The translations under genes and the position numbers were made by a program. The notes beneath the pieces were generated by a model, which saw only the letters and a list, made by a program, of their open reading frames with translations, was not told the DNA's origin and made no database searches. From positions 147,351-211,350 of the forward strand of contig JAUJOZ010000002.1 in NCBI GenBank assembly GCA_030447415.1: a stretch of DNA of 64,000 nt, written 5' to 3'. The DNA comes from Thermomicrobiales bacterium (GTDB lineage Bacteria > Chloroflexota > Chloroflexia > Thermomicrobiales > UBA6265). The first letter of the stretch is position 1; each line of letters starts with the position of its first letter. Below are positions 2,255 through 56,094 of this stretch, piece by piece.

Positions 2255-2408
2255 GGTTCCACCCTCTCCCATGCCATCGCCTCGTCGGGTGCCGATGCCA
2301 ACGACCGGGCCACTCCGCCGCGGCGAACGCCCGCCTGAATACAGAACGGAGGCACGGGATGCTCTGTGAGCCCATGCCTCCGCTCTGGGGAGTCGTTGCC
2401 GTCGAGCG

Positions 2409-7030: not shown

Positions 7031-8683
7031 CTAACTCGCCCGTCTGAGAAGTTGCTCTTCAATCACCAGATCCAAGGCGAGCGTTCGATAGCCGACCGTG
7101 TCGAACAGAACCACGACCTTGTCACCCTCATAGCGCATGACGAGACCGTCGCCCCAGGCGCTGTGGACGACGCGGCTGCTGATCGAGAACGGCTGGTCGC
7201 GCTCGTCCGGGGCGATGGGGACCCCGGCATCACAGACGTCGCACGCGCCGCAGGGGGGATCGTAGCGCTCACCGAAGTAGTTCAGCAGGTACTCGCGCCG
7301 GCAACCACCAGCTTCCGCATAGCCGCGCATCATCTCGATCCGTGACCGGGCGAATCGCTGGAGGTTCTCCTGGGTCTTGGCCGCTTCGTTCGCTGCCTCG
7401 CGAAGGTCGTCAGCGCTGGGCGGTCGCTCCTCAGTCGGCACAACCTCGCCACTGGGCAACATCTGCACCACGCCGACCTCTTCCAAACGGCTTAGGGCCG
7501 TCGTGACCTGCGTTGTGGAGAGTTTGATTGCGTCGCCCAACGCCTCCGGACCAAGGGGGCCGCCGTGTGCGTGGACGATGGCGGCCACTCGCTCCGTCTG
7601 GTCGACGTCAATCTGGCCCCCACTCGCGAAGAAGCGGCGGAGGTTGAGGTCCTCAGGGCGGTAAAAGAGGACTGCAGTCGCCGCGTCACCGTCGCGCCCG
7701 GCCCGCCCGATCTCCTGGTAGTAGGAGTCGATGGAATCGCTGATATCGAGGTGGAAGACGAAGCGGACGTTCGGCTTGTCGATCCCCATGCCGAACGCCG
7801 TTGTGGCGACGATTACCTCGACCTCGTCAGCCATGAACGCTTCCTGGACCCGTTCGCGCTCGCGGGCCGTCATGCCCGCATGGTAGGCGACGGCGCGCAC
7901 CCCGCGCTCGTCGAGCGCCGTGGCGACGTCCTCCGCTCGGTTGCGGGTGGCGGCGTAGACGATCCCCGGCTTGTCCGCCGCGGCGACCCGCGTCACGAGT
8001 GCCTCGCGTTTATCGTCCTCGTCCTCGAAGGTTTCGGCTCCGAGCCAGATGTTGGGCCGATCGAACCCCTGCACGACCAGCATTGGCTCCCGCATCCGCA
8101 GCCGTTCGACGATCTCCTCACGCGTCGGTGGAGCGGCGGTCGCGGTGAGCGCTAGCGTCGTCGGGCGCCCGAGCGCCTCGATGACACCGCCGAGCCGCAG
8201 GTACTCCGGCCGGAAGTCGTGCCCCCACTCGCTGATGCAGTGAGCTTCGTCGACGACGAAAAGCGATGGTTGCGCCGCCCGCAGCCGGTCAAGGGTCTCC
8301 TGGTTGGCGAACTGCTCCGGCGCGAGAAACAGGAACTCCAGGCTCCCCTCCCCAAGCTCCGAAAACGCCTCTTCGCGCTCCACCGGCCTGAGGGTGGAGT
8401 TCACCTGCGCCGCCTCGCCGACGTCTAGCTCGTCGATGTTCTCGACTTGGTCCCGCTGGAGCGCGATCAGCGGTGAGACGACAATCGTGGGACCGTCGAG
8501 GAGAGTCGCCGCGATCTGGTAGATCGCCGACTTCCCGGCGCCTGTCGGCAGCACCGCGAGGGTATCCCTTCCCGCGACGACAGCGCGGATTGCTTCCTCC
8601 TGCCCCGGTCGCAAGTCCTCGAAGCCGAACTTCTCCCGCGCGACGCGGCGAATTCGCGCCGCGCCTGGTCGTGTCCCGCCCAC
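7031..8683 (-). CDS. recQ: RecQ-family ATP-dependent DNA helicase
   Basis: PTGAGKS, DEAHCISEWGHDFRPEY, ATTAFGMGIDK, YYQEIGRAGRDG, Zn-binding CRR..CGACDVC. Confidence 0.95.
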   Translation of the reverse strand: MGGTRPGAARIRRVAREKFGFEDLRPGQEEAIRAVVAGRDTLAVLPTGAGKSAIYQIAATLLDGPTIVVSPLIALQRDQVENIDELDVGEAAQVNSTLRPVEREEAFSELGEGSLEFLFLAPEQFANQETLDRLRAAQPSLFVVDEAHCISEWGHDFRPEYLRLGGVIEALGRPTTLALTATAAPPTREEIVERLRMREPMLVVQGFDRPNIWLGAETFEDEDDKREALVTRVAAADKPGIVYAATRNRAEDVATALDERGVRAVAYHAGMTARERERVQEAFMADEVEVIVATTAFGMGIDKPNVRFVFHLDISDSIDSYYQEIGRAGRDGDAATAVLFYRPEDLNLRRFFASGGQIDVDQTERVAAIVHAHGGPLGPEALGDAIKLSTTQVTTALSRLEEVGVVQMLPSGEVVPTEERPPSADDLREAANEAAKTQENLQRFARSRIEMMRGYAEAGGCRREYLLNYFGERYDPPCGACDVCDAGVPIAPDERDQPFSISSRVVHSAWGDGLVMRYEGDKVVVLFDTVGYRTLALDLVIEEQLLRRAS

Positions 8684-9223: not shown

Positions 9224-9594
9224 CGGCTCGCCAGCAGAGCCCGAGCGGCTAGCGCGGTCTGGCTCACGCCAGGAACCGCCGGCATTCGCCGGCGGTTCCT
9301 GGCGTGAGGAGGGAGAGGAGGAGACGTGCGGGACGTTCCCGCTCAATCGGTGCGTTCTCAGGATAGCGGCCCTTTGCCGGCGCACCATCCCCCAAGGGTC
9401 ATGTCCGCGCGGACGCGGAACGTACAGGCGTGGCTGTCGAAAGGTCCTACGCCAACGCCCGACTGTCCGTACGCTGCGGTACACTTCCCCCGCTGGACGC
9501 GGGTGTATAGGGGGCGAGCGTGGGCACCGGGTTGGCCGAAGCGGTCGAGACCGACATCCGGGGTGCGCCGGTGGCCGGGCCAGCATCGACGGCA

Positions 9595-9807
9595 ATGCCT
9601 GTCGACGGCGCCAGCCGCCGCGTGAGCCTCCCACGGCGCGAGTTCTTGGCTGATGTCGTCGTGGCGTTGCGAGCGCGGCTGTCGGGGGTTAGCCGAATTC
9701 GCCACCGGGCGTCGATGAACCTGGTGAAGGTCTTCTATGGCAACGAGCGGGTCCACTACGACGAGTGGGAAACGCAGTCTGTTGTCGCTCACCTGGCACG
9801 GGCGTGA
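9595..9807 (+). pseudogene. truncated paralog of the downstream hypothetical gene
   Basis: RREFLADVV..NLVKVFYGNERVHYD aligns with RRDFFDAVV..LLKVDFGNPRVHYE. Confidence 0.5.
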
Positions 9808-9853
9808 GCTGACCGGCGTTGCGGAGTTGGTCGAAGCCGCCGACTGAGAGCTG

Positions 9854-10456
9854 ATGGCCGTGATAGACGATGTCGCCCGCGGTGAGCCGATTGGTCACGT
9901 GATCGACCTGGATCCGGCTTCCATCAACCCCGGTGGGGTGGAGCGGGGACGAGCCGGTGCCGGCCTCACCCGGCGCGACTTCTTCGACGCGGTCGTGGAC
10001 CGCCTACGCGAGGAGCTGCCCGAACCGCGCCGTGCTTTCCAGTACCGGTCCAACCCACTGCTGTTGAAGGTGGACTTCGGAAACCCGCGCGTGCATTACG
10101 AGATTTGGTGCGATGGCGAGCGCCACATCCTCGGGCTCGGGCTCCACTTCGAGGACGGTCCGCTCAGCACGGCGGCGTACCTGACCTACTTTGATCAGCG
10201 CATCGTGGAGCTGAAGCACGAGCTCGGCCCAGCTATCGAGCTCGAGCGCTGGACCGCCTCCTGGGGCCACCTCTACGAGCATTGGCCGCTCGGGACGCTA
10301 ACGGAGGCGCTGGCGGAGCGCGTCGGTCGGCGCCTCGCCCGGCTCATCACGACCTTGCAGCCGCTGGTCGAGGCAGCCGAGATCGCGCGAGAGCGGTCGG
10401 CCTTGGCTCCCGATGGAGCCGAGCGGCGCGGACCGTGGCGAAAGTGGCGGCGGTGA
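9854..10456 (+). CDS. hypothetical protein
   Basis: protein-like ORF, GC3-biased codons; VHYEIW..GLHFEDG..LERWTASWGHLYE. Confidence 0.75.
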   Translation: MAVIDDVARGEPIGHVIDLDPASINPGGVERGRAGAGLTRRDFFDAVVDRLREELPEPRRAFQYRSNPLLLKVDFGNPRVHYEIWCDGERHILGLGLHFEDGPLSTAAYLTYFDQRIVELKHELGPAIELERWTASWGHLYEHWPLGTLTEALAERVGRRLARLITTLQPLVEAAEIARERSALAPDGAERRGPWRKWRR

Positions 10457-10615
10457 TGGCGCCGCACGCCGACGAGCGTCGCACCCATCGAGCACCAATC
10501 CGGACACGGCGTTAGGGCTCCGGCTCTGGTGTCGCATTGTCCGACCCGAGGCCGCCCTTCGCCGAGTTGCGGTGGACGGCGCGGAAGCGGGACGCCGAAC
10601 TGCAGGTCCACCGGC

Positions 10616-11729
10616 TAAGCAGCCTCAGAGAAGTCTTGGACCGGTGCGTGCGGCGGCGGGGGCGGAGGTGCTGCGATGGCCCCCACCCTCGCCCCGTGCG
10701 CCGACGATCTCCGGGGCTGACCCGGACCGACCCCGACCCGCGGGTGCGTCGGCGGGCGCACGCCCTGCTGCTGGTCGCCGAGGGGCGGACCGTGGCCGCG
10801 GTCGCGCGCCTGTTCGAGACGGGGCCGAACCGCATCCCGCGCTTGGCGGGCCCGGTTTCGGCGCGGCGGCCGCCAGGGCCTCGACGACGCGCGCTCCGGT
10901 CGCCCGCCCAAGCCTGAAACGCCGCGGCGCTGGCGTTCCTCGCGGAGGCGCTGGAGGCGAGCCCCCAGGCGCATGGGCTGCCGGTCACGGTCTGGAGCAT
11001 CCGCGACCTGCGCGAGGTGCTGCGGCACGCCTGGGTGTCCGGGTCTGCACCGCGACCGTGCACCGAGCGGTGCAGCGCCGGAACCTCGAGTACCGCCCCC
11101 CCGCCACGACCTGCGGCACCGCCAGGACCAGGAGGCGTCGCGGCGGCCGAGGAGGTCCTGGCGTGGCGGCGAAAGCGTTGGCGCCCCCGGCGAACTCCGC
11201 CTCCGTTTACTTGGACGAGTGGGGTGAGGTCCACCGTCACCGCCTGGCGAAGGTGTGGCAGCGGCGGGGGTGCCCGCGCTGAGGGTGCCGGCCGCCGGGA
11301 GGACGGCAAGTTCGCCGTCTTCGGGGCGCTCGACTACGCCACCGGCCGGCTCGTCTGCCAGACCGCGGAGCACAAGGACGGCGCCGCCTTCGTCGCCTTC
11401 CTCGACCACCTGGCCGCGGCGTTCCCCGACGGGCCGCTGGTCGTGGTCCTGGACAACGTCGGCTACCACAAGGGGCGGCGCGCCAAGGACTGGTGGATGG
11501 CCCAGCAGGACCGGGTCCGCCCGCTGTGGCTGCCCGCCTACGCGCCTGAGCTGAACCTGATCGAGCGCGTCTGGCGTCACCTCAAGGACAAGCTGAGCTG
11601 CTATCGCTGGTGGGCCGACCTGCCGGCGCGGGAGTGGCCGCCGCCGCCCTCCTCGCGGACCGAGGCGCGCTTTCACCAGCCAGACCCGGGCGGCATCGCC
11701 CTGGTCCAGAACTTCTGTCAGGCTGCTTA
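10616..11729 (+). mobile_element. IS630-family insertion sequence (frameshifted transposase)
   Basis: IRs TAAGCAGCCTCAGAGAAGTCTTGGACC / GGTCCAGAACTTCTGTCAGGCTGCTTA with TA ends; DDE motifs YLDE, VVLDNVGYH, LPAYAPELNLIERVW; N-terminal RRRAHALLL HTH. Confidence 0.9.
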
Positions 11730-12532
11730 GGGCGTGTCTGCAAACCCCGCGGCGTAGCGGCCATGTAACGCCGGCCGGCCCGACGTTCGTGTGCGAGCAG
11801 ATCAGATCGCCTCGTTGGTCCGGTCCCGCGTCGTCCGGCGCGCGGGCACCGCGTCCCGGACGTCCTCGCGCGACTTCCACTCCGGTTCGGGCGGCGCGTA
11901 GTCCGGGCGCGGGGCGTAGACCGACCGCTCGACGAAGGCCATCTTGTGGATGTAGCGCGGGCAGTTGGGGAAGATCCGCTCGGCCCGCACCCGCACGATC
12001 AGCTGCGCGCCCGGCAGCTCGGCCAGCAGCGGGTCGTCGTGGACGGTAGCCGTCCCGTTGACGCGCAGGCGGCCGGGCTGCTCGAAGTCGATGAAGAGCA
12101 GCCCGACGTGGGGGTTGACGCGCAGATTGCCGAGGCTGCGGAACATGCCGTTGCCGTCGTAGTCGGGGAAGGCGAGGGTCCGGTCGTCGACGACGCGCAC
12201 GAACCCCGGCAGGCCGCCCTTGTAGGAGCAGTCGGGCCGGCCGGCGGCGTCGGCCGTGGCCAGGAAGAACATCGCGCTACGTTCGAGGAACGCCCGGTCG
12301 CGGTCGGAGAAGATCGCGTGGGCCCGGACCTCGTACAACCGGTCGGCGAGCCGCCGGGTGTCGAATTGGTCCTGCAGCTGCCGCGACCCGGCGTGGTAAC
12401 TATCGTCCTCGGGCATCGCGGGGCCCCTTTCGCGAGGGCGCCTCTGTGAACCGGAGCGGGTCGAGCGGTGCGCCATCGATCCACATCCTAGCATCCCGAT
12501 AGCGCCACGGCTTTGGCTTTGCAGACACGCCC
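11730..12532. mobile_element. non-autonomous IR-bounded passenger cassette (MIC/tIS-like)
   Basis: perfect 15-bp IR GGGCGTGTCTGCAAA / TTTGCAGACACGCCC flanked by TA, enclosing one gene and no transposase. Confidence 0.75.
11802..12416 (-). CDS. pyridoxamine 5'-phosphate oxidase-family FMN-binding protein
   Basis: FFLATADAAGRPDCSYKGGLPGFV, FPDYDGNGMFRSLGN, NCPRYIH. Confidence 0.9.
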   Translation of the reverse strand: MPEDDSYHAGSRQLQDQFDTRRLADRLYEVRAHAIFSDRDRAFLERSAMFFLATADAAGRPDCSYKGGLPGFVRVVDDRTLAFPDYDGNGMFRSLGNLRVNPHVGLLFIDFEQPGRLRVNGTATVHDDPLLAELPGAQLIVRVRAERIFPNCPRYIHKMAFVERSVYAPRPDYAPPEPEWKSREDVRDAVPARRTTRDRTNEAI

Positions 12533-13866: not shown

Positions 13867-14622
13867 TCACCCGCACGCGCAGGTCGTGTGGTTCATCGCC
13901 TCGTCGTTCGGGCACGCCTTGGCGCAGTAGGCCATCGCGGGGTCCTTCGTCAGGCAGACCTCCCCGCCGCTCGGGCAGACGCAGCTCTCAGGCTCGAAGC
14001 TCGAACACACGGCGCCGCCCACGCATGTCGTTTCGCCGCAGCGGCAGGAGCAGTCGTCCGCCCGCCTGCCCCCCTCGCCGCACGGTGGGAGGCAGGCGCC
14101 GCCGCAACGGTCTTCGTTGGCGCAGCACGCGCCCTCCGCCACGCATTGGCCGTCGCGGCAGCGCCGCTCTCCCGCCTCGCACTCGTCGCAGGGCGCATCG
14201 ACGCCAGGCACTTCGAAGTACCCGACGCAGAGGTCGGAGCACGGGAGGTCGGGCAACTGGCTCACCAGGGCGCACACGGCCACCGACGCGGCCGCGCACC
14301 CAAGGCCGAATACAGTGCACGCTGGCGTCGCTTCGACCCCGGCGGCGCACGCCGCGTTCCCTCCCGTTTGGACGGCGTCGCTCGCCGTCTCGCACAGGCG
14401 CAAGCAACGGTTGCAGGAGAAGTCGGGCAGATCGGGCCAATCGGGCAGATCGGGCCAATCGGGCAGGTTCACGTCGATGGGGAACGCGGCGGCCGCCTCG
14501 CGTTTCGACGCGACGTTGAGGCCGATGAGAGCCAACGCCCCGCCACCGACGAGCTTGAGAATCCTTCGGCGCGGCGTCGCCGCGAGGCGGCGTGCGAAAT
14601 CGTCAAACGTGTCGTTCTGCAC
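13867..14622 (-). CDS. Tat-type secreted cysteine-rich protein
   Basis: GGAGG RBS + GTG; FDDFARRLAATPRRRILKLVGG leader; PDW/PDL repeats; many Cys. Confidence 0.7.
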   Translation of the reverse strand: MQNDTFDDFARRLAATPRRRILKLVGGGALALIGLNVASKREAAAAFPIDVNLPDWPDLPDWPDLPDFSCNRCLRLCETASDAVQTGGNAACAAGVEATPACTVFGLGCAAASVAVCALVSQLPDLPCSDLCVGYFEVPGVDAPCDECEAGERRCRDGQCVAEGACCANEDRCGGACLPPCGEGGRRADDCSCRCGETTCVGGAVCSSFEPESCVCPSGGEVCLTKDPAMAYCAKACPNDEAMNHTTCACG

Positions 14623-14961
14623 GTCAGCGCCTCCTCGACTGGTCGGAAGTGAGCGCAGAGAGGAGCAGGTCACTGCAAGACGGGCTATTTGCTTGGCGTG
14701 ACGGCCATCGGCGACCCTACCACATCGAACGATCTTGTCAATCGGCGTGCGGCGCTCTGAGATTCGTCTTTCGGTGGCTGCGATGACGTGACCAACCAGC
14801 GTCGCAAGGCGGCGCGCGCTCGTCGGGGCTCCACCCCCGTCGCAACGTTGCGAGAGCCGTCGACTGGCCGCAACCACATCCCCGCTCGGAGGGAAGGCAA
14901 GCCGTCGGGTCCCTGCCCGACCGTTCGCGCTCCGTGTTGCCGCAGGCCGCCCCGACGTACC

Positions 14962-14978
14962 GGTTTGCGGACACGCCC
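14962..14978. repeat. third copy of the GGGCGTGTCYGCAAA element end
   Basis: GGTTTGCGGACACGCCC is a 16/17 inverted match to 11730-11746. Confidence 0.7.
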
Positions 14979-15197
14979 TGGTCGCGCCAGCGCCTCCCAA
15001 TGTCGCCCATGCGGCACCTTCTGACCCCGGCGCACGAACGAGCAGTACCCCTCGGATAGACCGGTCGCCTGGGCCATCGCGCGGAGCGGCACGCCCAGCA
15101 ATCGGGGGAGGATGTCGCGGGCAAAGGCCGCCAGGTCGGTCGGTTCGTCGCCGTGCTCCCGCTCCCACCGGGCGGCGACGGCGACGACGCGGCCCCC
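14979..15197 (-). pseudogene. HTH-domain gene relic
   Basis: RWEREHGDEPTDLAAFARDILPRLLGVPLRAMAQATGLSEGYCSFVRRGQKVPHGRHWEALAR, cut by the IR; no clear start. Confidence 0.55.
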
Positions 15198-15219
15198 GCA
15201 CTCAAAACGTTTTGAGTGC
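15198..15219. repeat. 22-bp perfect palindrome, copy 1
   Basis: GCACTCAAAACGTTTTGAGTGC. Confidence 0.9.
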
Positions 15220-15565: not shown

Positions 15566-15826
15566 ATGAAGAAGCTGTTGGTCGTGGTGCTGCTGGCGGC
15601 GGGGCTCGTCCTCGGTGTCGGGGGCGGGTCGGCGGCCGCTGCGGGCGAGCGCCAGTTCGCCACCACAATTAGCACTATCGCGCGGGCGGACGACCTCTCG
15701 GGCTTTCCGACCGACCCCATCCGCAACTTTCCGACCGATCCCGTCCGCGGCGCGTACGTCTCCTACGCCGCGACCACGCTCAACCCGAGCGCCGGCGGCT
15801 CCTGTTCCCCGATCAACTGCGAGTAG
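15566..15826 (+). CDS. small secreted protein
   Basis: AAGGAG RBS; MKKLLVVVLLAAGLVLGVGGGSAAAA signal peptide; FPTDP[IV]R twice. Confidence 0.65.
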   Translation: MKKLLVVVLLAAGLVLGVGGGSAAAAGERQFATTISTIARADDLSGFPTDPIRNFPTDPVRGAYVSYAATTLNPSAGGSCSPINCE

Positions 15827-15945: not shown

Positions 15946-15967
15946 GCACTCAAAACGTTTTGAGTGC
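15946..15967. repeat. 22-bp perfect palindrome, copy 2
   Basis: identical GCACTCAAAACGTTTTGAGTGC. Confidence 0.9.
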
Positions 15968-16110: not shown

Positions 16111-16796
16111 ATGATCACCCAACACCTGATCTTCGACGCCGACGACACCCTCTGGGAGAACAACGTCTACTTCGAGCGGGCCGTCGACGACTTCCTCGCC
16201 TTCCTCGATCACGCAACCCTCTCCCGTGAGCAGGCGCGGGCGGTGCTCGACGAGATCGAACGGGCCAACGCCGGCATCCACGGCTACGGCGCGGCGGCGT
16301 TCGCGCGCAACCTGCGGCAGTGCTACGAGCGCCTGGCCGAGCGCGACATCTCCGACGACGACCTCGCCCGCGTCATGGGCTTCGGCGAGCGATCCTCGCC
16401 CAGCCGCTGGAGGTGCTCAATGGAGTCGAGGAGACGCTGCAGGCGCTAGGGGCGCGGCACGACCTGACGCTGATGACGAAGGGCCACCCCGAGGAGCAGC
16501 GGCTGAAGATCGAACGTTCTGGCATGGGTGACGTCTTTCGGCACGCCGCCGTCGTGCCCGAGAAGGACGCCGCCGCCTACCGCGCCCTCGTCGCCGAGCT
16601 CGGGCTCGACCCGGGCCGTACGTGGATGATCGGCAACTCCCCACGGTCGGACGTCAACCCAGCGCTCGCCGCCGGCCTCAACGCGGTCTACGTTCCCCAT
16701 CCGGCCACGTGGCGATTGGAGCAGGAGGAGATCGTCACCGGACCCGGACAGCTTCTGGTGCTGGAGCGCTTCTCCCAGCTGCTTGACCACTTCTAG
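16111..16796 (+). CDS. HAD-superfamily hydrolase (one frameshift near 16392)
   Basis: IFDADDTLWENN, TKGHPEEQRLK, EKD, MIGNSPRSDVNPA. Confidence 0.85.
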
Positions 16797-17235
16797 TGAT
16801 CTAATTTCCCGGTGGGGCGCGGGTGCGGCCTCATCCCGGAACATGCCCCATCGCGTCCCCGCTCCGCGTCGTCCTGAGTGATGAGCGGCGTGCCTCCCTG
16901 GGCGGCTCGGTGGGAAGTCGCACCGCCCCAGAGTGCCGGCTGACCCCCGCGCGTCCTGCTCAAGGCTCAATACGGCGAGGGCGCTCCGAGGTGGTCTGAC
17001 GCTGCCCTCGCCGGCGAGCTCGCCATGGCCGCCAACCCCGTGGTGCGGGGACGCCACGAGGGCGTCGCGGAGGGGCCGGAGGCCGCCCTTGTGCGCACGT
17101 GCCCCGACCGTGTTGACGAGCGGTGCCTAGACGGGGTGGTTGAGGGCCGCCTAGACGCTGCTGGCCGCTCAGCCCATCTGAGTGGAGAAGAGATGTGTTT
17201 TCAGGCTGCAATCGCGATTTTCTCCGCTCGTTCCC

Positions 17236-17295
17236 TTTCCGTGCTACTTTCGATGGAGTATAATTAGGCTCAGATCGTACGTGCATGACTGGAGG
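17236..17295 (+). promoter_or_regulatory. promoter and RBS of the xre-recombinase operon
   Basis: TATAAT at 17259-17264 in an AT-rich patch; GGAGG at 17291. Confidence 0.5.
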
Positions 17296-17303
17296 TTAGA
17301 AAA

Positions 17304-17516
17304 ATGCAGGTGCCACGGCTGCGCGAGGTGCGGGAGCGCCGTTTGGTGACGCAGGTGGAGCTAGCGCGGAAGGCGCAGATGAGTGTCGCGACCGTCAATT
17401 TTGCCGAGCGCGGCCTACGGGATGTGCGCATTAGCACCGTGCGGCGGCTGGCAGCGGCCTTGGGCGTGCCGGCGACCGACCTCATGGCGCCGGCGCAGGA
17501 AGGGGAGCGACGATGA
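17304..17516 (+). CDS. Xre-family HTH regulator
   Basis: LREVRERRLVTQVELARKAQMSVATVNFAERG..TVRRLAAALGV; ATGA overlap with the recombinase. Confidence 0.85.
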   Translation: MQVPRLREVRERRLVTQVELARKAQMSVATVNFAERGLRDVRISTVRRLAAALGVPATDLMAPAQEGERR

Positions 17517-19378
17517 GGGCGGCCGTCTACGTCCGGGTCTCGACGGACGCCCAGGCGCGGGAAGATCGGCTGAGCCTGCCGGAGCAGATCGACAAGTGCC
17601 GCGAGTATGTGACCGCCCAAGGTTGGACCGAGGTCGCGACCCTGAAGGAAACCGGGACGGGCGCCCATCTCGATGAGCGGTCCCGGATGAGCGAGCTCCG
17701 GGCGATGGTCGCGAGCGGGCTAGTAGACGTGGTGGTCGCCTGGCATCCCGACCGACTCTCGCGCGATCCCGACCATCGGGCGGTCCTCCGCTACGAGTTC
17801 GCTAAGGCCGGCGCCCGCTACGCGACGGTCCATGACCACTACGCGGATGGGACCCGGATGGGCAGCGCCATGGATTATCTCACCGGCCTCGGCTCTGCCC
17901 AGGAGCTCGATGACCTCCGGCGGCGGACCGGTGCCGGCCGGCGCCGCAAGATGCACGGGGACCCGGAGCACGGCATCGCGCCGCGCCCCATCGGGAGTCA
18001 GGCCCCTGACTTCGGCCTCACGTGGGCCGACGAACGCAAACCGGACGGCCGCCTGAGGAAGGAGCGGCTCGTAGAGGACCCGGACACTATCGGCTGGGTA
18101 CGCTGGCTGTTCGGGCAGTACGATGCCGGCATCAGCCTGCGCGGGCTACGGTCCCGGCTGGAGGCGCTGGGTGTCAAGCCGCCCGCCTCCGCTCGGACCG
18201 GCTCCACCGTCTGGAGCCCGGCGACGCTCCGGGGGGTGCTCACCAACGAGCATTACCTCGGCATTGGGCACGCGAACACGACGATGACCGTCAAGGGACC
18301 GACCGGCAAGAAGCGGTCGGTCCTACGGCCCCGGGCGGAGTGGGTGCGGCTGCCCGAGGGGACCTTTCCCGCCGTCGTTGACGAAGCCCTCTTCTCACGG
18401 GTCCAAGATCGGATCCGACAGAACAAGAAGGAATGCCCACCTGGCAACCGGACCCCCAAGGTTGCGCTCCTGCGACGCGGCGTGGGGCGCTGCGGCTACT
18501 GTGGCAATAATCTTCAGGTCAACGAGGGCAATGGCAACCTCGACTATCGGTGCGACCCCCACAATCGCCAGCGCCACGGCTGCCCCAGCCATACTATGAG
18601 CGTCGAGAAGCTGGACGCCGCCGTGTCGGACCTCGTGGACCGGCTCCTGGCGCAGCCGGAGATGCTGGAGCAGAAGCTGCTGGGCCTCCGCGAAGCCGAC
18701 CCGACCGCTCTCAGCCTGCCCCGCATCCGGACCCGGATCGCGGAGCTAGAGCAGGATCGGACGCGGCTACGACGGCGACTGCGGGAGGACCTGAGTGAGC
18801 GAATTCGGAGCAACTACGAGGACGTGCTGAGCGACGTCGCGGAGGAGATGGAGAGGGCGGAGGTGGAACTGGCACGTCTCCTGGCCGAGCGCCGGGCGTG
18901 GGAGCTCGTACAGGAGCGGCGCCAGGGCATCCTTGATTTTGCAGCCCAGGTCCGGGCAGAAACGGGCGCCTTGACCTGGCAGGATAGGCGGCAGCAGCTG
19001 CTCCGACTCGGTGTCACGGTCAAGCTCTACCGCGCCGACAGTCCGTGGGGGCGGTGGCAACTCAGCACGCAGTGGCGACCGGCGGGCCAGCCGGTGACCG
19101 TGTCCCACCAGACAGTGCAGACGGCGGCAGACGGGTTCCAGACCGTCTCCGGGTATGATGCCGCAACGGGCCAGCGCTTCAGCAGCTGGGGCGTGGCTGG
19201 GCCAAGAGTGGATGACGTCGAGTTCTTGCGGAACAACGATCGCGAGACCGCATGCCGACTGGCACGAGAGGCGCTCACCGCCGGGTGGGCGAGTGAGCGG
19301 GCACGGCTAAGCGAAGAGAAGTCGATCAACGTGTTTGGTGCCTCTTCAGCCGCTGCTCCTCCAGGTGGCCCTTGGTGA
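17513..19378 (+). CDS. large serine recombinase (integrase)
   Basis: AVYVRVST catalytic Ser, DRLSR, recombinase domain, CGYCG..YRC..C zinc ribbon, coiled coil. Confidence 0.92.
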   Translation: MRAAVYVRVSTDAQAREDRLSLPEQIDKCREYVTAQGWTEVATLKETGTGAHLDERSRMSELRAMVASGLVDVVVAWHPDRLSRDPDHRAVLRYEFAKAGARYATVHDHYADGTRMGSAMDYLTGLGSAQELDDLRRRTGAGRRRKMHGDPEHGIAPRPIGSQAPDFGLTWADERKPDGRLRKERLVEDPDTIGWVRWLFGQYDAGISLRGLRSRLEALGVKPPASARTGSTVWSPATLRGVLTNEHYLGIGHANTTMTVKGPTGKKRSVLRPRAEWVRLPEGTFPAVVDEALFSRVQDRIRQNKKECPPGNRTPKVALLRRGVGRCGYCGNNLQVNEGNGNLDYRCDPHNRQRHGCPSHTMSVEKLDAAVSDLVDRLLAQPEMLEQKLLGLREADPTALSLPRIRTRIAELEQDRTRLRRRLREDLSERIRSNYEDVLSDVAEEMERAEVELARLLAERRAWELVQERRQGILDFAAQVRAETGALTWQDRRQQLLRLGVTVKLYRADSPWGRWQLSTQWRPAGQPVTVSHQTVQTAADGFQTVSGYDAATGQRFSSWGVAGPRVDDVEFLRNNDRETACRLAREALTAGWASERARLSEEKSINVFGASSAAAPPGGPW

Positions 19379-19746
19379 GGAGAACGAGGTCGTGGCGGGG
19401 CGCCAGGTAAGCCAGGGTCTCCGCAACTCCGGCGATAAGCTCGATCGGCTCGTGCAGGATGCGCTCGCCGAAGCCCATGACGCGGGCGAGGTCGTCGTCG
19501 GAGATGTCGCGCTCGGCGAGGTGCTCGTAGCACTGGCGCAGGTTGCGGGCGAAGCCGGCGGCGCCGTATCCGTGGACCTTGAGGTTGGCGCGCTCGATCT
19601 CGTCGAGGACCGCGCGGACCTCGGGCGGTGAGAGCGACGAGTGGTCGAGGAAGGCGAGGAACTCGTCGACGGCGCGCTCGAAGTGGACGTTGTTCTCCCA
19701 GAGGGTGTCGTCCGCATCGAGGATGAGGGTGTGCCCAGCCCTGCAT
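19343..19746 (-). pseudogene. 5' part of a second HAD hydrolase, truncated at the recombinase 3' end
   Basis: ILDADDTLWENN...TKGHLEEQRLK, then homology to 16111-16796 stops abruptly. Confidence 0.85.
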
Positions 19747-20580
19747 ACACTCGCGGGTTTTGCCTGGTCTTCCAAACCAACCCTGAATATGACGTTACGG
19801 CGCTTCCAACGGAGACGACACTTCCCCGCCCGACGAGATAAGTCTAGCAGGGCGGCTGGAGCCGGCAAGGAAAGACGATGCGGCGCCGCGGCACGAACGG
19901 CGACTCGGTGCGCTGTGGGCTGCTGGAGCGCCGTGAGGGCCAATGCTGCGTTTGGGTGGCCAGCTTTGCCGACGACCCCGCCCTCCACGAGCAGTGCATC
20001 CCCCTCGACGGCCACGGCTGGGCGTTCGTCCGAGCGATTCCCCAGGGCGAGGCGAACGAGAGGGCCGCGCTCGAGGACGCGGATGGGGTGTTGCACCAGA
20101 CGCCGGCGCTGGGCTGTGCAGTTCTCCCTGCCCATCGGGCTCTATAAGGCGCGGTGGATAGTCGCCGAGGCGGCGCGAAGCAGGAGGTTCAGCGGATCCT
20201 AGAGCAGGGCTTCCAGCGCTTCTAGTTTGGACGAGGGCAGGTTGGTCCGAAGGGGACACGCAGGTAGAGATGGAGGAACAGTTTTCTTAGGCAGGGATTG
20301 ACCGTGTGCAGCAGGGCCAGCAGCACCAGCCGCTCACTGATCGGCACGGGAAAGAGCGCATGCAGAGGCGGTGTCCCGCTTGCGTCGGACCCCGCCTCCC
20401 TCCAGTAGAGCCAGTCGAGGGTGAGGCGAAGGGCGGCAAGGCGAGTCGACTGGCTCATGGGTGGGGTGTGGATACGTTTCTTGTAGAACGCTTGTTCAAA
20501 CGGGCTCAGGTCCAGTGTACGGACACCATGCTAGGCTTGAGCGAGCTGCCAGAATGGAAGCGCAGGAGGCCGCCACCCTA

Positions 20581-21429
20581 ATGCCAGAGGATCTGACTGG
20601 ACCGGCCGAAAACTACCTAATCTCCGTGCCCGAGGCGGCGCGCCGGCTTGGGGTGTCGGAGGATCGCGTCCGCCAGATCGTGCGCGATCGAGGTATCCCT
20701 ACTGGCCTGGTTGGGGGGCGCATCATCTTGGACGAGAGACGCCTGCCTGAGCTTGAGCGGGCCCACGAAGTGCCGGCGAGAGGGAGCCCACGGCGGGCCG
20801 CGAGAAGCCGGAGGCGCTGGGGACGGTCGCGTGTGAAGAGCAGAGTCTGGCGGGTGCTGGGCGAGGCCGCCGTTATCACGAGCCTGTTGGCGTTCGTCCG
20901 CATTGACGCCTTCTCGATCGCCCGTGCCGTGGCGGCAGCGATGGCGGCCGGCAATGGCCTCATCTGGTGGTTGGTGTGGCGTCGCGATCGGCGCACGCAA
21001 CGACGAGACGACCCAGACACGTCGGGAGCACTCGAGACCGGCAGTCGAGTGCGCGAGGACTGGGAGGCAACACCCCAACTCAGTCCGTTCGGGATCCGCC
21101 TGCATGGCGTTCAGGGGCTGGTCGGCGCCATGTCCCTGGCCGTGCTCCTGGCATCTGCCTGGATGGAGGACTCGCCCAGTCTGTCCGAGGAGAACACGCC
21201 CACCGGAACACCGACGGCTCTGGCCAGTGCGACGCCGACCGCGACGGCAACCGCGACCCTTTCCTCAACCGCGACCGTCACACCCACTACGACCCCCACC
21301 CCTACGCCACCGCCAACGCCCACGCCGGAGTTCGTCCTCCTGCCGGAGCGCCCAGTTCTTCCCCTGCCCGAGCCCCCGCGGAACGGACGTGGGGATGCCG
21401 CCCTGTCCCCCAACCGGGGGGGAGAGTGA
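20581..21429 (+). CDS. excisionase-like HTH + transmembrane + Thr/Pro-rich protein
   Basis: ISVPEAARRLGVSEDRVRQIVRDRGIP; 2-3 hydrophobic segments; TPTPTPPPTP tail. Confidence 0.6.
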   Translation: MPEDLTGPAENYLISVPEAARRLGVSEDRVRQIVRDRGIPTGLVGGRIILDERRLPELERAHEVPARGSPRRAARSRRRWGRSRVKSRVWRVLGEAAVITSLLAFVRIDAFSIARAVAAAMAAGNGLIWWLVWRRDRRTQRRDDPDTSGALETGSRVREDWEATPQLSPFGIRLHGVQGLVGAMSLAVLLASAWMEDSPSLSEENTPTGTPTALASATPTATATATLSSTATVTPTTTPTPTPPPTPTPEFVLLPERPVLPLPEPPRNGRGDAALSPNRGGE

Positions 21430-21614
21430 GGACCACTACGGGCTGGAGAGGCCCTTGAGCAGATTCCAGAAGTCCGACCTGCGGTATTTCCGGGCGTGGT
21501 GGCCGTGGGGTCCGAGTTTTCGGCAGGAGAGGCTATCTGCGTAGAGACGATAGTCGGTATCGTCAGGGAAGCGTTCGTAAGGTTCCCGCCCGAGAGCCCC
21601 CGACGCCGCAGAGC

Positions 21615-21998
21615 CTAGCTGCTCCACTCGTCGTACACCCGCTCCCGCTCTTCCCGCCAGAATCCGCGCTTCTCCTCGTTGGACGCTCCGGTGGGGATCA
21701 GCCCGTACTCCTCCGCCAAGCCGTAGAAGCCAGGTCCGGGCATCTGATTGGTGCTGGAGACCGCGACCGCGGAGAGCATCGGGCGCCCTGCGGCTCGCTC
21801 GCGCTCCGTAATCGCACCGAGCATCTTACCGACCATCTGGCCCATGTAGCTGCCACCCTGTGGTAGACCCATGATCTCGGCGATCTGTCCGTACGTCACC
21901 GGCTGACGGGTTTCGGCCGCTCGGATGAGCAGTCCATACACGCGGATAAAGGCCTTTCCGTTTTCCAGATCGCTCGCCCCGGTGTTAGCGGTTGCCAT
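21615..21998 (-). CDS. hypothetical winged-helix-like protein
   Basis: GGAGGAG RBS; VTYGQIAEIMGL..GRPMLSAVAV..PGPGFY..FWREERERVY. Confidence 0.75.
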   Translation of the reverse strand: MATANTGASDLENGKAFIRVYGLLIRAAETRQPVTYGQIAEIMGLPQGGSYMGQMVGKMLGAITERERAAGRPMLSAVAVSSTNQMPGPGFYGLAEEYGLIPTGASNEEKRGFWREERERVYDEWSS

Positions 21999-22462
21999 GC
22001 CTCTCCTCCCTCCGACGTGCTCCACCGACCGCTCCGCTTGCGGTCGCATCCTACAATTTCGAAGCGGTTTCGAATGGTGTAGTGGGAGTGGTGGAGACTC
22101 TCTTAGTAGAGGAGCAGCGGGCGTTCGATCACGCCGAAGGTTGATATGGTGGCGCTCCTCCTGGTCCCTTGAGAGCTCACCGAACGTGTCGTCGTGCGTC
22201 CGGCGCGAAGTATAGGCAAGCACTCGCCGGAGACGCTCGGAGCGGATCAGCCCCGTGGCGACGTCGCCTTGCTCGTTCAAGGACACCAATGGACGACGTG
22301 CCACGAGGTGCAACCCTACCGACCCCGCGGGAGTCAACCGACAGCGTCCTCCGCCAGGAGGAGAGCCGCAACCTCTCGGCCGACGCGCGGCGCGCCTACC
22401 GCCGGACGTTCGCCTCGCTCTCGGTGCGAAACGTCCGGACGGTGGCCGACGCGATAATTGGT

Positions 22463-30421: not shown

Positions 30422-30814
30422 CGCCCGTGTCTCCTCGGTCGTGATCGCCGCGCGCCGCGGCATCCGTAGGTCCCGGCACCGGGGACCGTCGCCTCTCCCG
30501 TCCCACGGGCCGAGCGAGTGCCCGGCGGGACGTGTGATGCAGGCAGGCTTGCCGGTCCAACCACCGGTGTGATGGTTCGCGGTTCGCTGGGCGGCGAGTG
30601 TAGCAGACGGGTGGAAGCTCCTGGCCGCGGACTCGAGTGCCGAGCCTCGGGCGTCGGACCGCCCCTGGGATGGTGCGTACCGTCCGCTCCCCGCCGCCGA
30701 CTACAATGGCGAAGGCGCCACGCGCCGTCACGAGACGAGTTCGTCGTCCAACGGGCACCCGGGCTGACGGACCGCCGTGGGCCGCCCACCACCCGCACCG
30801 GGGGTACACCACCG

Positions 30815-33800
30815 ATGAGCAGCCGCAGTCTCAGCCGCAGCCCGTTCCTCGACCTCGCGCGGGAGCGCGTCGTCGTCTACGACGGGGCGATGGGGACCTC
30901 GGTCCAGGCGTATAGCCTCGACGCGGCCGGGTACGGTGGGATTGAGGGGTGCAACGAGTATCTGGTCTTCCACAACCCCGGGCTGATCGAAGCGATCCAC
31001 GCCTCGTTCCTAGAGGTGGGGGTCGACATCGTCGAAACCGACACCTTCGGCGGCAGCCGTCTCAAGCTGGAGGAGTACGGGCTCGGCGAGCGGACCTACG
31101 AGCAGAACCACGAGGCCGCCCGCCTGGCCCGCCGGGTGGCGGACCAGTACACCACTGCCAAGCACCCCCGCTTCGTCGCCGGCTCGATTGGACCGACGGG
31201 GCTGCTGCCGGCCTCGGAGGATCCGCTGCTCGGCAATGCCCGCTTCGGCGAGGTCGTCGACCTGTTCCTCGACCAGGTACGGGGCCTGGTCGCCGGGGGC
31301 GTCGACGTGCTGATCATCGAGACGACCCAGGACATCCTGGAGCTCAAGGCGGCGGTCCACGCCGCCCTCCGCGTTCGCGAGGAGACGGGCATCTTCGTCC
31401 CCATCCAGGCGCAGGTGACGCTCGACACCAGCGGGCGGATGCTCCTCGGGACCGACGTCGCCGCCGCCCTGGCCGTGCTGGAGGCGCTACCGGTCGACGT
31501 GATCGGGCTCAATTGCTCGACCGGGCCGGAGCACATGCGCGAGCCGGCGCGGTACCTGGGCGAGCACGCGACCAAGCCGGTCTCGATCATTCCCAACGCC
31601 GGGTTGCCGCTCAACGTCGACGGTAAGGCCGTGTATCCCCTGGAGCCCGAGCCGATGGCGCGGGCGCTCCGCGAGATGGTCGAGACGTTCGGGGTCGGGC
31701 TGGTCGGCGGGTGCTGCGGCACGACGCCGGAGCACCTCGCGGCGACCGTGCGCGAGATCGGTCGACGGCCGGCCGTGGCCCGTCCGATGAAGCCGCTTCC
31801 ACTGATCGCGAGCATGGTGCGGGCGGTCGACCTGCACCAGGACCCGGCGCCGCTGATCGTCGGCGAGCGTGTGAACACGCTCGGCTCCCGCAAAGTCAAG
31901 CGCCTGGCGCTGACCGACGACTACGACGGCATGGTGACGGTGGCGCGAGGGCAGATGGAGGAAGGGGCGCACGCCCTCGACGTCTGCGTGGCGATGACCG
32001 AGCGGACCGACGAGCGGGAGATGCTGCGCCAGCTCGTCAAGAAGCTGGCCCTCAACGTCGAGGGCCCTTTGGTGCTCGACTCGACCGAGGCCGATGTCAT
32101 CAAGGACGCCCTGGAGCAGTACCCCGGGCGGGCAATCGTCAACTCGATCAACATGGAGAACGGGCGGGCCCGGATCGAGGCGGTGATGCCTCACGCGATC
32201 GCGCACGGCGCCGCGGTCGTGGCGATGACGATCGACGAGGAAGGGATGGCGAAGACGGCCGAGCGCAAGCTGGCCGTCGCCCGGACGATTCACCGGATCG
32301 TCACCGAGGAGTACGGGCTGGCGCCGGAGGCGCTGATCTTCGACACCCTGACCTTCCCGCTCTCGACGGGCGAGGAGGAGTTCGTCCGCTCGGCGATTGA
32401 GACGATCGAGGGGATTCGGCTGATCGAGCGGGAGCTGCCGGGGGTGTTGACCATCCTCGGCATCTCCAACGTGTCGTTCGGGCTCAACCCGGTGGCGCGC
32501 AAGATCGTCAACGCCGTCTTCCTCTACCACGCGGTCCGGGCCGGGCTCGACATGGCCATCGTCCACCCCTCGCACGTCGTCCCCTTCGCCGAGATCCCGG
32601 CCGAGGAGCGGGAGCTGGCCGAGGATCTCGTCCTGGCGCGGCGGCCGGACGCGCTGGCGCGGCTGATTGCGTTCTTCGAGGGGCGAGAGGAAACGAACGA
32701 CGGGGCGACGGGTCCCGACCCGATGATCGGGATGGGACCGGCGGAGAGGTTGCACTACCGGATCCTGCACCGCAAGAAGGAGGGGATCGAGGACGACATC
32801 GACCTTGCCGTCGCCGAAGCGGGCGATCCGGTCGACGTCCTGAACAACGTCCTCCTGCCGGCAATGAAGGAAGTGGGAGACAAGTTCGGGGCGGGCGAGC
32901 TGATCCTGCCGTTCGTGCTGCAATCCGCCGAGGCGATGAAAAAGGCCGTGTCGCGGCTGGAAACCTATCTGGAGAAGCAGGAGGGGGTGACGAAGGGGAC
33001 GGTGGTGCTGGCCACCGTCTTCGGTGACGTCCATGACATCGGCAAGAACCTGGTCAACACGATCCTGACCAACAACGGCTACACCGTCCACGACCTCGGC
33101 AAGCAGGTGCCGGTCAACCGGAATCATCGAGAAGGCGGTCGAGACGAACGCGACGGCGATCGGGCTGTCGGCGCTGCTCGTCTCGACGAGCAAGCAGATG
33201 CCGCTGTGCGTGCAGGAGCTGCACCACGGCGGGCACCGCTTCCCGGTGATCATCGGCGGAGCGGCGATCAACCGGGCCTACGCCCAGCGAACCCTGTTCG
33301 TCGACGAGCAGACCCCCTACGAACCGGGCGTCTTCTACGCCAAAGACGCCTTCGAGGGGCTGTCCCTGATGGACCGCATCGTCGACGCGACGCGACGCGA
33401 CGAGCTGGTGCGGACGACGGTCGAGACGGCCCGGGCCGCGCTCGGCCGACCGGGCCGGACTGCGTTCAGCGTGCCGGCGGAGGCGGCGGCGACCGAGGGC
33501 GCGACGGTGCGCCGGGTCGATCCGCCGCCCCCTCCCTTCTGGGGCGTGCGGAGATGGAGCCGATAGATCTCGACGACGTGTGGCCGTGCCTCGACCTGAA
33601 GACCCTGTTTCGCCTCCACTGGGGCGGCAAGGGCTCAAGGACGAGGCGTGGGAGGCGCTCCAGCGGAACGAGTTCCTGCCGCGGCTGCGGGCGATGCAGG
33701 AGGCGGCGAAGTGCGATGGATGGCTCCAACCGCGCGTCCGCTACGGCTACTTCCCGGCCAACGGCGAGGGGAACGATCTGGTCGTCTATAGCCCCGACGA

Positions 33801-54903: not shown

Positions 54904-54918
54904 CGGTCGCGCTCCTCC

Positions 54919-56039: not shown

Positions 56040-56094
56040 TGGGGGGCCGCCGGCGGCACGGGCACCACCCTTGGCCGCCGGCGGCGAACCGCGG

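Follow-up and report, generated by a model that had tools for sequence, protein, structure and literature searches.

A serine-recombinase element that probably carries an inverted spare copy of the HAD-hydrolase gene it interrupts

In a 64,000-nt stretch of a Thermomicrobiales contig (JAUJOZ010000002.1; hereafter the window), the gene of a large serine recombinase (LSR) lies between a full-length homologue of a HAD-family hydrolase gene (HAD-A) and the inverted 5' remnant of another (HAD-B). This layout probably arose by ordinary LSR-mediated integration into a host HAD gene, performed by an element which brings along a full-length copy of its own target. Direct observations from which this reading starts are the junction between HAD-B and the LSR gene, the domains of the LSR, the limits of the HAD homology, the recurrence of the layout at four genes and one locus, L006, which provides a complete example. 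The spare gene copy probably offsets the damage caused by the insertion, and HAD-A would represent cargo of the element rather than host DNA in this window.

Results

The two HAD copies form an inverted repeat, with one arm inside a gene and the other in a nearby partial copy 2833 nt away (Table 1). Self-blastn detected this repeat with E = 2.8e-96. Its ungapped part pairs 16125-16391 with 19462-19728 (267 nt, 85% identity), and with a single 1-nt gap the homology, which covers 19728-19343 of the minus strand in HAD-B, reaches 16509/19343 with 309 of 385 positions identical (80%). An earlier note on this DNA had described about 400 bp of homology and a point of divergence directly past GAGGAGCAGCGGCTGAAGA in both copies, which is confirmed by the alignment. 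Similarity is absent from the alignment 5' of the two start codons.

Table 1. Features of the HAD/LSR locus (window coordinates).
Feature	Position	Strand	Basis
HAD-A, full-length HAD-family hydrolase homologue, two frames as assembled	16111..16796	+	family identity, Pfam
Left inverted-repeat arm (5' 385 nt of HAD-A)	16125..16509	+	alignment
Single base missing from HAD-A in the alignment with HAD-B and family members (frameshift or assembly indel)	16391..16392	+	
Spacer between HAD-A and the Xre gene, without supported ORF	16797..17303	.	sequence, GC3 ORF screen
Xre-type HTH protein, 70 aa	17304..17516	+	PF01381 E = 1.5e-12, PHROG transcriptional regulator families
Large serine recombinase (LSR), 621 aa, intact ORF	17513..19378	+	Pfam, phrog_95
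Junction, attR/attL type	19320..19365	.	alignment, sequence, arm motif
HAD-B, 5' remnant of disrupted host HAD gene	19343..19746	-	alignment, frames, family identity

HAD-A had been described in the same note as a full gene. Its 686 nt indeed correspond to the full family length, with 73-81% amino acid identity to 228-aa family members over both of its parts (tblastn) and matches to PF00702, PF13242 and PF13419 in the 3' part. A single intact frame, however, is not present, as one base is missing after 16391 and the gene falls into two frames as assembled; tblastn also places the frame change at 16392. This frameshift may be an assembly indel, since metH in the same window is likewise split over at least three frames. 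HAD-B is a homologous 5' half as proposed and shares 77-80% amino acid identity with the six full-length family members nearest to it. Its supposed start, the ATG at 19746, is however shifted by one base from the frame of the HAD-B domain, which is that of the ORF at 19326-20135.

Over the 128 aa before the junction, HAD-A and HAD-B share ~78% identity (84% over 89 aa, 64% over 39 aa). Compared with the 78-80% reached by the best full-length relatives of HAD-B, this value fits an imported copy rather than a local duplication. Judged from these identities, HAD-A is no closer to HAD-B than homologues of other organisms are, apart from one block, namely the 56 nt at 16336-16391, which are identical in both copies and end at the indel. 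Once the gap is removed the block measures 61 nt, a length reached in 0 of 20000 shuffles of the mismatch positions, and we infer that it represents a gene-conversion tract between HAD-A and HAD-B. Residues common to both copies that differ in seven family members include FLAFLDH and ERDISDDDLARV; these shared residues fall in or near this block. Next to the junction, the two copies also agree over 19 nt.

The junction at 19343 fits an LSR attachment-site junction, since the homology stops at one point, the LSR gene converges on the remnant and its ORF crosses the junction by 36 nt. HAD-B was thus rightly reported to abut the 3' end of the recombinase gene, and the two in fact overlap: the stop codon of the LSR (19376-19378) falls within the HAD-B homology, 36 nt from its edge, and the last 12 LSR codons are encoded by HAD-B DNA past the junction. 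On the element side, the arm (19323-19342) includes AAACACGTTG on the minus strand; on the host side, it begins at 19343, and the crossover presumably took place at the GA of 19343-19344 or close to it. An arm motif, AAACnnGTTG, is common to the window and to the related locus L001 (see below) and is unique within the window. By eye, the DNA inside 16510 showed no convincing resemblance, dyad or arm similarity to the element-side arm at 19342.

At the junction itself the target gene is not rebuilt, as HAD-B reads ...EEQRLK, followed by the five foreign codons RHQTR and a stop. The same tail, RHQTR*, occurs in P0052, which is 96% identical and represents the only other HAD-B junction sequence among the matches listed; it is found in the same state and has no Met near the domain start. 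The upstream side of HAD-B in P0052 joins DNA corresponding to 22286-22164 of the window, beside amidohydrolase and GlnA genes, which places HAD-B in a host context. The HAD-B fragment cluster is recorded on two contigs.

The LSR contains a resolvase-type catalytic domain (PF00239, residues 3-146, E = 1.2e-20), a C-terminal recombinase domain (PF07508, residues 190-304, E = 5.3e-17) and a zinc beta-ribbon domain (PF13408, residues 323-375, E = 1.7e-08), and matches the integrase family phrog_95 with E = 1.2e-70. Residues S10 (in YVRVSTDAQ), R8, D80, R81 and R84 are invariant in an alignment of six sequences. As to the coiled-coil insertion in the zinc-ribbon domain, only a weak, sub-threshold match of residues 401-490 to the helical family PF09969 was obtained (18.6 bits vs a cut-off of 24). 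The best NCBIfam match is XisF with 56 bits against a cut-off of 375, and searches of PDB and phage sequences (tblastn for the latter) returned distant serine integrases only, with ~28% identity to those of phages; the best relative overall is 53% identical. A GGAGG motif stands 8 nt before the ATG of the upstream Xre gene, whose stop overlaps the LSR start (ATGA), and both genes are therefore probably co-translated. The Xre-type protein might act as a regulator or directionality factor.

The same layout was found beside related LSRs. Altogether, 76 LSR genes (the window included) were tested for an upstream copy of the DNA found at the LSR 3' end, using tblastx matches limited by length, identity and bits; seven further genes had too little flank, and an unfiltered tblastx scan was discarded as it was swamped by high-G+C composition matches. 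An inverted full-length gene copy upstream of the LSR was present in 4/76 cases, compared with 0/124 for control segments 2.5 and 5 kb further downstream. Each time a different gene is concerned, i.e., the HAD gene in the window, a class-III aminotransferase (Aminotran_3) in L001, a BioF/Kbl acyltransferase in L071 and a GNAT gene in L006. At all four loci the full copy is inverted relative to the remnant, and in the three comparators it is intact. There, too, the LSR ORF ends past the junction, by ~11 nt in L001, ~14 nt in L071 and 6 nt beyond the core in L006. HAD-A has not visibly lost the host-side arm of the site (the 19 identical nt), unlike the full copies in L006, L001 and L071. Not counted were a fifth match in L045, a 100% direct repeat presumed to be an insertion sequence, and matches in L059, L041, L017 and L037, which lie outside the LSR 3' end/upstream layout.

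Both host halves are visible in one of the three comparator loci. In L006, the halves of the split host GNAT gene flank the element in direct orientation, the 3' half (977-1210) and the 5' half at the opposite end being on one strand; the 3' half is 76% identical in nucleotides to the element copy. A 7-bp core, GGTCTTC, occurs at both junctions (as GAAGACC at 1213 and 11560), and the 10.3 kb between the cores encode an NrS-1-like primase-polymerase, a prohead protease, a capsid protein and a SocA/Panacea protein. The full GNAT gene lies 161 nt upstream of the LSR and has a codon-size indel at the core relative to the host site. The two 5' copies share 47% amino acid identity over 83 residues (tblastn); in nucleotides, the arms have a single 44-nt blastn stretch in common, which appeared in the word-size-7 search only. 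The truncated copy in L001, a short-read assembly, carries a 1-nt deletion ~40 nt from the junction; this contig breaks off 84 nt upstream of the full copy, and that of L071 stops short of any left junction. In L071 the remnant follows host ABC-transporter genes, and the full copy is embedded in foreign DNA, as indicated by the low G+C on both its sides (0.47 and 0.52 vs 0.57 on the host side).

The window itself contains only one junction, at 19343. In line with the earlier note, no second HAD 3' half was found in the 64 kb by tblastn with 3' halves and full lengths of nine family members, which at E < 1 returned only 16491-16793, trivial short matches aside. Neither an orphan HAD 3' half nor a recognizable second element arm was found in the 19 kb to the left or the 44 kb to the right. 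A search with AAACNNGTTG and the 15-nt arm sequence (up to three mismatches) returned the known site and two chance-level matches; it has little power, given that the L006 arms have little in common beyond GAAAC. The host 3' half and the left element end lie more than 19 kb to the left, have been deleted or are on another contig. As a candidate for the 3' half of HAD-B we considered P0173 (90 aa, 569-nt contig), which begins six residues past the junction point and is 80% identical to the 3' half of HAD-A; being equally near to P0063, it was kept as a lead only.

To the left of HAD-A, PHROGs and Pfam searches of the ORFs gave no phage or conjugation genes. The DNA there includes PntAB and a RecQ-like helicase; lacking phage and conjugation functions, it leaves the extent of the element undefined and counts against a spare copy carried by an element. 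The same applies to the 3' half and second arm missing from the window, to the host-side arm apparently retained in HAD-A and to the presence of both host halves in just one of the three comparators. An IS630-like transposase is encoded at 10516-11730, and the k-mer profile is atypical at ~12.5-23.5 kb, where a sharp left boundary is absent. Promoter and terminator scans and Rfam gave nothing useful, and a tRNA scan found no tRNA gene in the window.

Discussion

Our data are best explained by an element whose integrase, the LSR, would have recombined its attP with an attB in a conserved host HAD-hydrolase gene. HAD-B would have been cut directly after the EEQRLK codons, and the junction at 19343 would be one end of the element. 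With attP located inside the 3' end of the LSR ORF, this ORF now finishes in host DNA. HAD-A would be a complete homologue of the destroyed gene, brought in just upstream of the Xre-LSR operon and, being on the LSR strand, inverted relative to the host remnant. If HAD-A supplies the lost function, a highly conserved coding sequence becomes usable as attachment site at little cost. HAD-A is predicted to complement HAD-B in this way; the frameshift, if real, would prevent complementation. The inverted orientation may itself be favoured, as the integrase cannot be lost when two inverted copies recombine. The earlier note had offered a full replacement of the target as one of two options, and the layout at three other genes together with the complete locus L006 supports this option.

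More tentatively, and with considerable doubt, these loci could belong to a Chloroflexota-centred LSR clade specialized in gene-replacement integration, i.e., with a strongly conserved stretch of an enzyme gene as target and a working inverted homologue of that gene beside the integrase. The spare would then serve as addiction module as well as cost-saver: when the split host copy decays, exact excision no longer restores the gene and the cell depends on the element copy. Such decay is suggested by the L001 remnant, which is already frameshifted next to its junction. The pair of copies may still exchange sequence, as suggested here by the 56-nt block, and occasionally invert by homologous recombination.

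A rather unlikely alternative with the same origin is that the element has died. In this case attL, the left part of the element and the 3' half of the host gene would have been deleted, HAD-A would be a real pseudogene and HAD-B would have lost its start. Nothing would then complement or move, and the intact Xre-LSR pair would not yet have decayed or be kept for another reason. The absence of the left end and orphan 3' half from the window, the HAD-A frameshift, the out-of-frame ATG of HAD-B together with the missing Met in P0052, the nearby IS630-like transposase and the atypical composition are all in line with decay, and the survival of the junction in a strain with no more than 96% identity in the HAD-B piece suggests age. 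Against this, the LSR and Xre ORFs are intact with conserved catalytic-domain residues, and the state of metH makes single-base indels unreliable evidence of pseudogenes in this assembly.

Very unlikely, in our view, is the other option of the earlier note, a two-state shufflon in which the LSR inverts 16510-19342, links the only 3' half to one or the other 5' half and promoter, and turns its own gene around. In its favour, the geometry shows exact symmetry, with 19 identical nt flanking both points and a full copy inverted relative to the remnant at all four loci. If inverted at the homologous point, the segment would keep the reading frame and yield a HAD-B 5' half plus 3' half free of the HAD-A frameshift, and the 56-nt block shows that sequence was exchanged between the arms. 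However, L006 combines the same layout with 5' copies that lack nucleotide similarity and a normal attL/attR pair, and the truncated copy in the short-read assembly of L001 is frameshifted. The inner flank at 16510 is unlike the arm at 19342, making the HAD-A site attB-like and the other attR-like; such a pair is not known to be recombined by phiC31 and related integrases. P0052, the only other strain among the matches listed, is in the same state, and a near-identical HAD-B 5' half joined to a full 3' half does not occur in the best 120 of 4931 matches. HAD-B, moreover, keeps its 5' end and upstream DNA and has lost the 3' part, unlike typical gene-altering programmed inversions, where it is usually the 5'/TSS part that is missing from the silent partner (Milman et al., 2023; PMC9881135).

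Highly improbable is a third reading, in which HAD-A is a resident gene that happens to lie beside the insertion, or the product of an old inverted duplication at this place, and the element consists of Xre and LSR only. The left neighbours of HAD-A are not recognizably mobile and the two copies share residues that differ in seven family members, but these lie in or near the conversion block; the HAD-B 3' half would be expected between HAD-A and Xre, where the 507-nt spacer has no HAD similarity, and the pairing of full copy and remnant recurs with three other genes vs 0/124 controls. A contig misjoined through repeated HAD 5' sequence is scarcely credible: the assembly likely contains indel errors (metH) and, in the close relative L001, the contig breaks off 84 nt upstream of the full copy, but the arms are just 80% identical and match over no more than 56 nt in a row, P0052 provides an independent view of the HAD-B/LSR junction, the HAD-B cluster is on two contigs, and three other assemblies have the same layout.

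The closest described analogue of integration with a spare target copy appears to be the tRNA-dependent lysogeny of actinobacteriophages, which sets a precedent for compensated integration at tRNA genes (Guerrero-Bustamante and Hatfull, 2024; PMC10865867). In both cases the target is destroyed and not rebuilt at the junction; the phage-borne gene of the same function, which compensates for the loss, would have its counterpart in HAD-A. The phage systems, in the same account, differ in using a tyrosine recombinase and a tRNA target and in that the requirement was proven experimentally (PMC10865867). At the present loci, known from sequence alone, the integrase is a large serine recombinase and the targets are protein-coding enzyme genes interrupted mid-ORF, and the spare is a full-length homologue beside the integrase, in inverted orientation.

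Serine-integrase elements which split protein-coding genes include phage A118 in comK, SPbeta in spsM, skin in sigK and the fdxN element with XisF. To our knowledge, none of them carries a complete copy of the split gene, and function returns only on excision. Further reports add the gin/gerE element (PMC5595907) and surveys in which many LSR targets lie inside conserved coding sequences (PMC10083194). The window shares with these elements the resolvase, recombinase and zinc-ribbon domains, an attachment site in conserved coding sequence and the position of the integrase at the element end, whereas its LSR is distant from theirs, as seen from the low XisF score and the ~28% identity to phage integrases.

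Phage 21 and e14 in icd exemplify target-restoring integration. As in these cases and in tRNA/tmRNA islands, the element in the window would avoid the insertion cost by bringing replacement sequence; there, however, only the displaced part is carried, in direct orientation, and its fusion at the junction makes the gene whole again in situ, whereas here the junction ORF is truncated and the replacement separate, whole and inverted. Islands in tRNA and tmRNA genes are covered by Islander (PMC4383910). Like the window, the hsdS shufflons, the Mu G segment and the R64 shufflon (PMC9881135) combine a full gene, an inverted partial copy and a recombinase between or beside them. Their variable parts, however, are specificity domains, whereas the partner in the window lacks the 3' part and the genes concerned encode metabolic enzymes; the complete example L006 is, unlike shufflons, a plain insertion with attL and attR.

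The principle of compensation is already known for tRNA genes and tyrosine integrases. For serine integrases in protein-coding genes, no account of it emerged from full-text searches of open-access papers and preprints. Genome annotation and screens for programmed inversions are also concerned, in that a full gene with a recombinase and an inverted partial copy mimics a shufflon and may be a plain insertion. In the discovery of LSR tools, such loci mark the natural target gene of the integrase even without an empty site. For the elements themselves, a conserved coding sequence is a target present in many hosts, but the host usually loses a gene by its use. With a whole spare copy this cost would disappear, and the host could also come to depend on the element.

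Inverted HAD copies and a sharp junction

The inverted repeat formed by HAD-A, the full-length HAD-family hydrolase homologue, and HAD-B, the 5' piece of a second HAD gene, was confirmed by self-blastn (E = 2.8e-96), the copies matching over 267 ungapped nt at 85% identity, or over 385 nt with one 1-nt gap (309 identical). The exact divergence point proposed in the earlier note also stands, with similarity extending from near the start codons to just past GAGGAGCAGCGGCTGAAGA at 16509 and 19343, respectively. Beyond 16509, HAD-A keeps the family sequence (IERSG...). HAD-B, which runs antisense to the large serine recombinase (LSR) and across the final 36 nt of its open reading frame, has five unrelated codons left past the junction before it meets a stop. 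A tblastn search using nine family members, both as 3' halves and at full length, found no HAD 3' half in the 64 kb other than that of HAD-A, as had been noticed before.

The gene calls themselves required some revision. HAD-A is a homologue of HAD-B, but as assembled not one continuous reading frame, since one base is missing at 16391/16392 and its two parts consequently lie in different frames. Likewise, HAD-B does lie on the minus strand, but the ATG at 19746 previously taken as its start is offset by one base from the frame of the HAD-B domain.

Ordinary chromosomal genes are found on both sides of the locus. On the left are PntAB, a RecQ-like helicase and an IS630-like transposase, along with PNPOx-like and DUF5655 genes; the right side carries amidohydrolase, GlnA-like and M20 peptidase genes as well as KsgA and MetH. 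The G+C content of the window is ~68%, and k-mer composition is atypical from ~12.5 to 23.5 kb, with edges that are not sharp. Left of HAD-A, a 22-bp palindrome, GCACTCAAAACGTTTTGAGTGC, occurs in two perfect copies 748 nt apart, which flank a small ORF; none is expected by chance, and the palindrome is absent from all 80 LSR loci described below. The palindrome might act as an operator or terminator, or it might represent a small repeat element.

Features of the window and of three comparator loci with related recombinase genes
Locus	Feature	Position	Strand	Remarks
Window	IS630-like transposase	10516-11730		two adjacent frames: HTH_23 part 10516-10917, DDE_3 part 10918-11730
Window	Long ORF	13867-15201	-	Cys-rich, repeat-containing, no family match; coding status uncertain by GC3; exact 18-nt tandem duplication at 14423-14458
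Window	Palindrome, first copy	15198-15219
Window	Small ORF	15566-15826		apparent signal peptide
Window	Palindrome, second copy	15946-15967		~145 nt upstream of HAD-A
Window	HAD-A	16111-16796	+	HAD-family hydrolase homologue
Window	Spacer, HAD-A to Xre			507 nt
Window	Xre-type HTH gene	17304-17516		70 aa; stop overlaps LSR start
Window	LSR	17513-19378		621 aa; resolvase, recombinase and zinc-ribbon domains
Window	HAD-B		-	~128 first codons of second HAD gene, converging on LSR
Window	Segment directly upstream of HAD-B	~19780-22163		~2.4 kb; no counterpart in P0052
Window	ORF in this segment	20461-21429		322 aa; N-terminal HTH_17/excisionase-like domain, Pro/Thr-rich tail
Window	ORF in this segment	21615-22100		no family
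Window	metH	30470-34288		at least three frames
Window	Second stretch of atypical k-mer composition	53500-57000		lower G+C (~0.64-0.65)
L001	Class-III aminotransferase, full	85-1443	+
L001	HTH_17 gene
L001	LSR	1967-3835	+
L001	Aminotransferase remnant			inverted copy of first ~107 codons, abutting LSR 3' end
L071	BioF/Kbl-type acyltransferase, full	~1512-2696
L071	Hin/resolvase-type small serine recombinase	7306-7866		186 aa; PF00239 and HTH_7
L071	ORF just upstream of LSR	9592-9999		135 aa; resembles LSR N-terminal domain, changed at catalytic-motif position
L071	LSR	9962-11554
L071	Acyltransferase remnant	12353 down to 11541
L006	GNAT, host 3' half	~949-1219		same strand as 5' remnant at opposite end
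L006	Core (GAAGACC)	1213
L006	GNAT, full	9241-9813
L006	LSR	9974-11572
L006	Core (GAAGACC)	11560
L006	GNAT remnant	~11799-11560

Recurrence of the layout with other genes

The LSR of the window is rare: only three proteins in a set of 5.8 billion share 50–53% identity with it and all others 37% or less; the few relatives with a source name belong to Chloroflexota. A single genome_contigs scan, run with an alignment built from the six closest LSR sequences, yielded 80 loci, in which the only close match is that of a Thermomicrobiales MAG (L001, 53%). The check suggested in the earlier note, whether homologous recombinases sit beside the same HAD family, gave a negative answer here, this family occurring at none of the 80 loci.

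In these loci and the window, the DNA upstream of every LSR gene was searched at the protein level for a copy of the 1.35 kb around the 3' end of that gene; 76 genes were testable and seven had too little flank. An inverted copy belonging to a full-length gene was found for four of the 76, namely the window (HAD), L001 (aminotransferase), L071 (acyltransferase) and L006 (GNAT), and for none of 124 control segments located 2.5 and 5 kb further downstream. A fifth match, L045, is a direct repeat of 100% identity and was set aside. In all four loci the LSR reading frame runs over the junction and stops in host DNA. Since the LSRs of L071 and L006 are only 27–28% identical to that of the window, the layout was not inherited as one block but has arisen with four unrelated target genes. 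In L071, the remnant comes after host ABC-transporter genes, and the DNA flanking the full copy on either side is lower in G+C (0.47 and 0.52) than the host side (0.57), which places this copy inside foreign DNA.

L006 offers a complete example. A 7-bp core, GGTCTTC in gene sense, is present at both junctions, and the reconstructed sites show short dyads, as expected of LSR sites. Genes for an NrS-1-like primase-polymerase, prohead protease, capsid protein and SocA/Panacea protein are found in the 10.3 kb between the cores, along with the full GNAT gene, which comes directly before the LSR; a periplasmic-binding-protein gene lies left of the element. The 3' halves of the host gene and the full copy share 76% DNA identity, and a codon-size indel located directly at the core distinguishes the element's GNAT from the host site. 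Given both host halves on one strand, the common core and the full GNAT inside the element, L006 is a simple case of LSR integration, in which a host gene was split by an element carrying a whole homologue of it.

A probable element carrying a copy of its target gene

The first of two alternatives in the earlier note, an element with a full replacement of its target gene, is supported by the layouts of L001, L071 and L006 and by the completeness of the latter. Accepting this, an element using the LSR as its integrase would have cut the host gene HAD-B, with 19343 as one att junction, and HAD-A would be the element's own copy; we consider this rather probable for the window. The motif AAACnnGTTG is common to the element-side arms of the window and L001 and occurs once in the window. 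Furthermore, P0052, a protein of 191 aa found in another assembly, shares 96% identity with the HAD-B piece, ends in the same RHQTR tail and matches window positions 22286-22164 with its N-terminal part, which places HAD-B in host DNA and the junction in a second strain. The ~2.4-kb segment missing from P0052 may represent either another small insertion or DNA lost from the P0052 strain.

Regarding the origin of HAD-A, a block of 56 nt (16336-16391) is perfectly identical to HAD-B, a run reached in none of 20000 shuffles. Outside this block, the distance between both copies is about that of homologues from other organisms (~78% aa before the junction, by hand arithmetic from tblastn, vs. 78–80% for the best full-length relatives of HAD-B). 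This fits import of HAD-A, followed by formation of a conversion tract, better than a local duplication.

Several points do not fit. Neither the left end of the element nor the HAD-B 3' half was found within the 64-kb window, and the DNA left of HAD-A within it contains no phage or conjugation genes; the IS630-like transposase is a possible agent of rearrangement on this side. P0173 (90 aa, from a contig of 569 nt) is a HAD 3' fragment that begins just past the junction and is a candidate for the orphan half; another family member is at least as close to it as HAD-A is. The 19 nt adjoining the junction are identical in HAD-A and HAD-B, meaning that HAD-A retains the host-side arm of the site. 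HAD-A is also frameshifted as assembled, a point on which the frame breaks of metH bear. There, positions 2-40 and 41-97 of the B12-binding profile are in different frames and a third ORF holds the activation domain, reflecting either a pseudogene or an assembly with indel errors; single-base indels of this assembly are consequently weak evidence for pseudogenes.

Inversion as an alternative

The second alternative, a two-state shufflon acting as a programmed switch by inversion between the HAD-A site and the HAD-B/LSR junction, is not supported, although the arrangement is symmetrical and the frame would be kept on inversion. In L006, the 5' halves of the full copy and the host remnant share 47% aa identity over 83 residues (tblastn) and, in a word-size-7 blastn search, no nucleotide similarity beyond one 44-nt stretch, so that inversion between them is not plausible; L001, whose truncated copy has lost 1 nt ~40 nt from the junction, also argues against a switch. 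Moreover, the inner flank at 16510 is unlike the element-side arm, which would leave an attB-like and an attR-like site as the pair, a combination not known to be recombined by serine integrases. Only one orientation is present among the sequences sampled (window and P0052). The remnant lacks a 3' and not a 5' end, whereas Milman et al. (PMC9881135) identified the opposite asymmetry, a partner without 5' end, as the strongest predictor of gene-altering inversions. An occasional RecA-type inversion between the HAD arms is possible as a by-product.

Comparison with known systems

Full-text searches of open-access papers and preprints returned no description of this layout. According to parts of an LSR survey, many LSR targets lie inside conserved coding sequences, and these parts make no mention of spare target copies (PMC10083194). 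Among described systems, tRNA-dependent lysogeny (PMC10865867) comes closest: insertion by a tyrosine integrase destroys a tRNA gene of the host, and the lysogen needs the same-isotype tRNA of the phage to survive; here, in contrast, a serine recombinase and enzyme-gene targets take the place of the tyrosine integrase and the tRNA gene.
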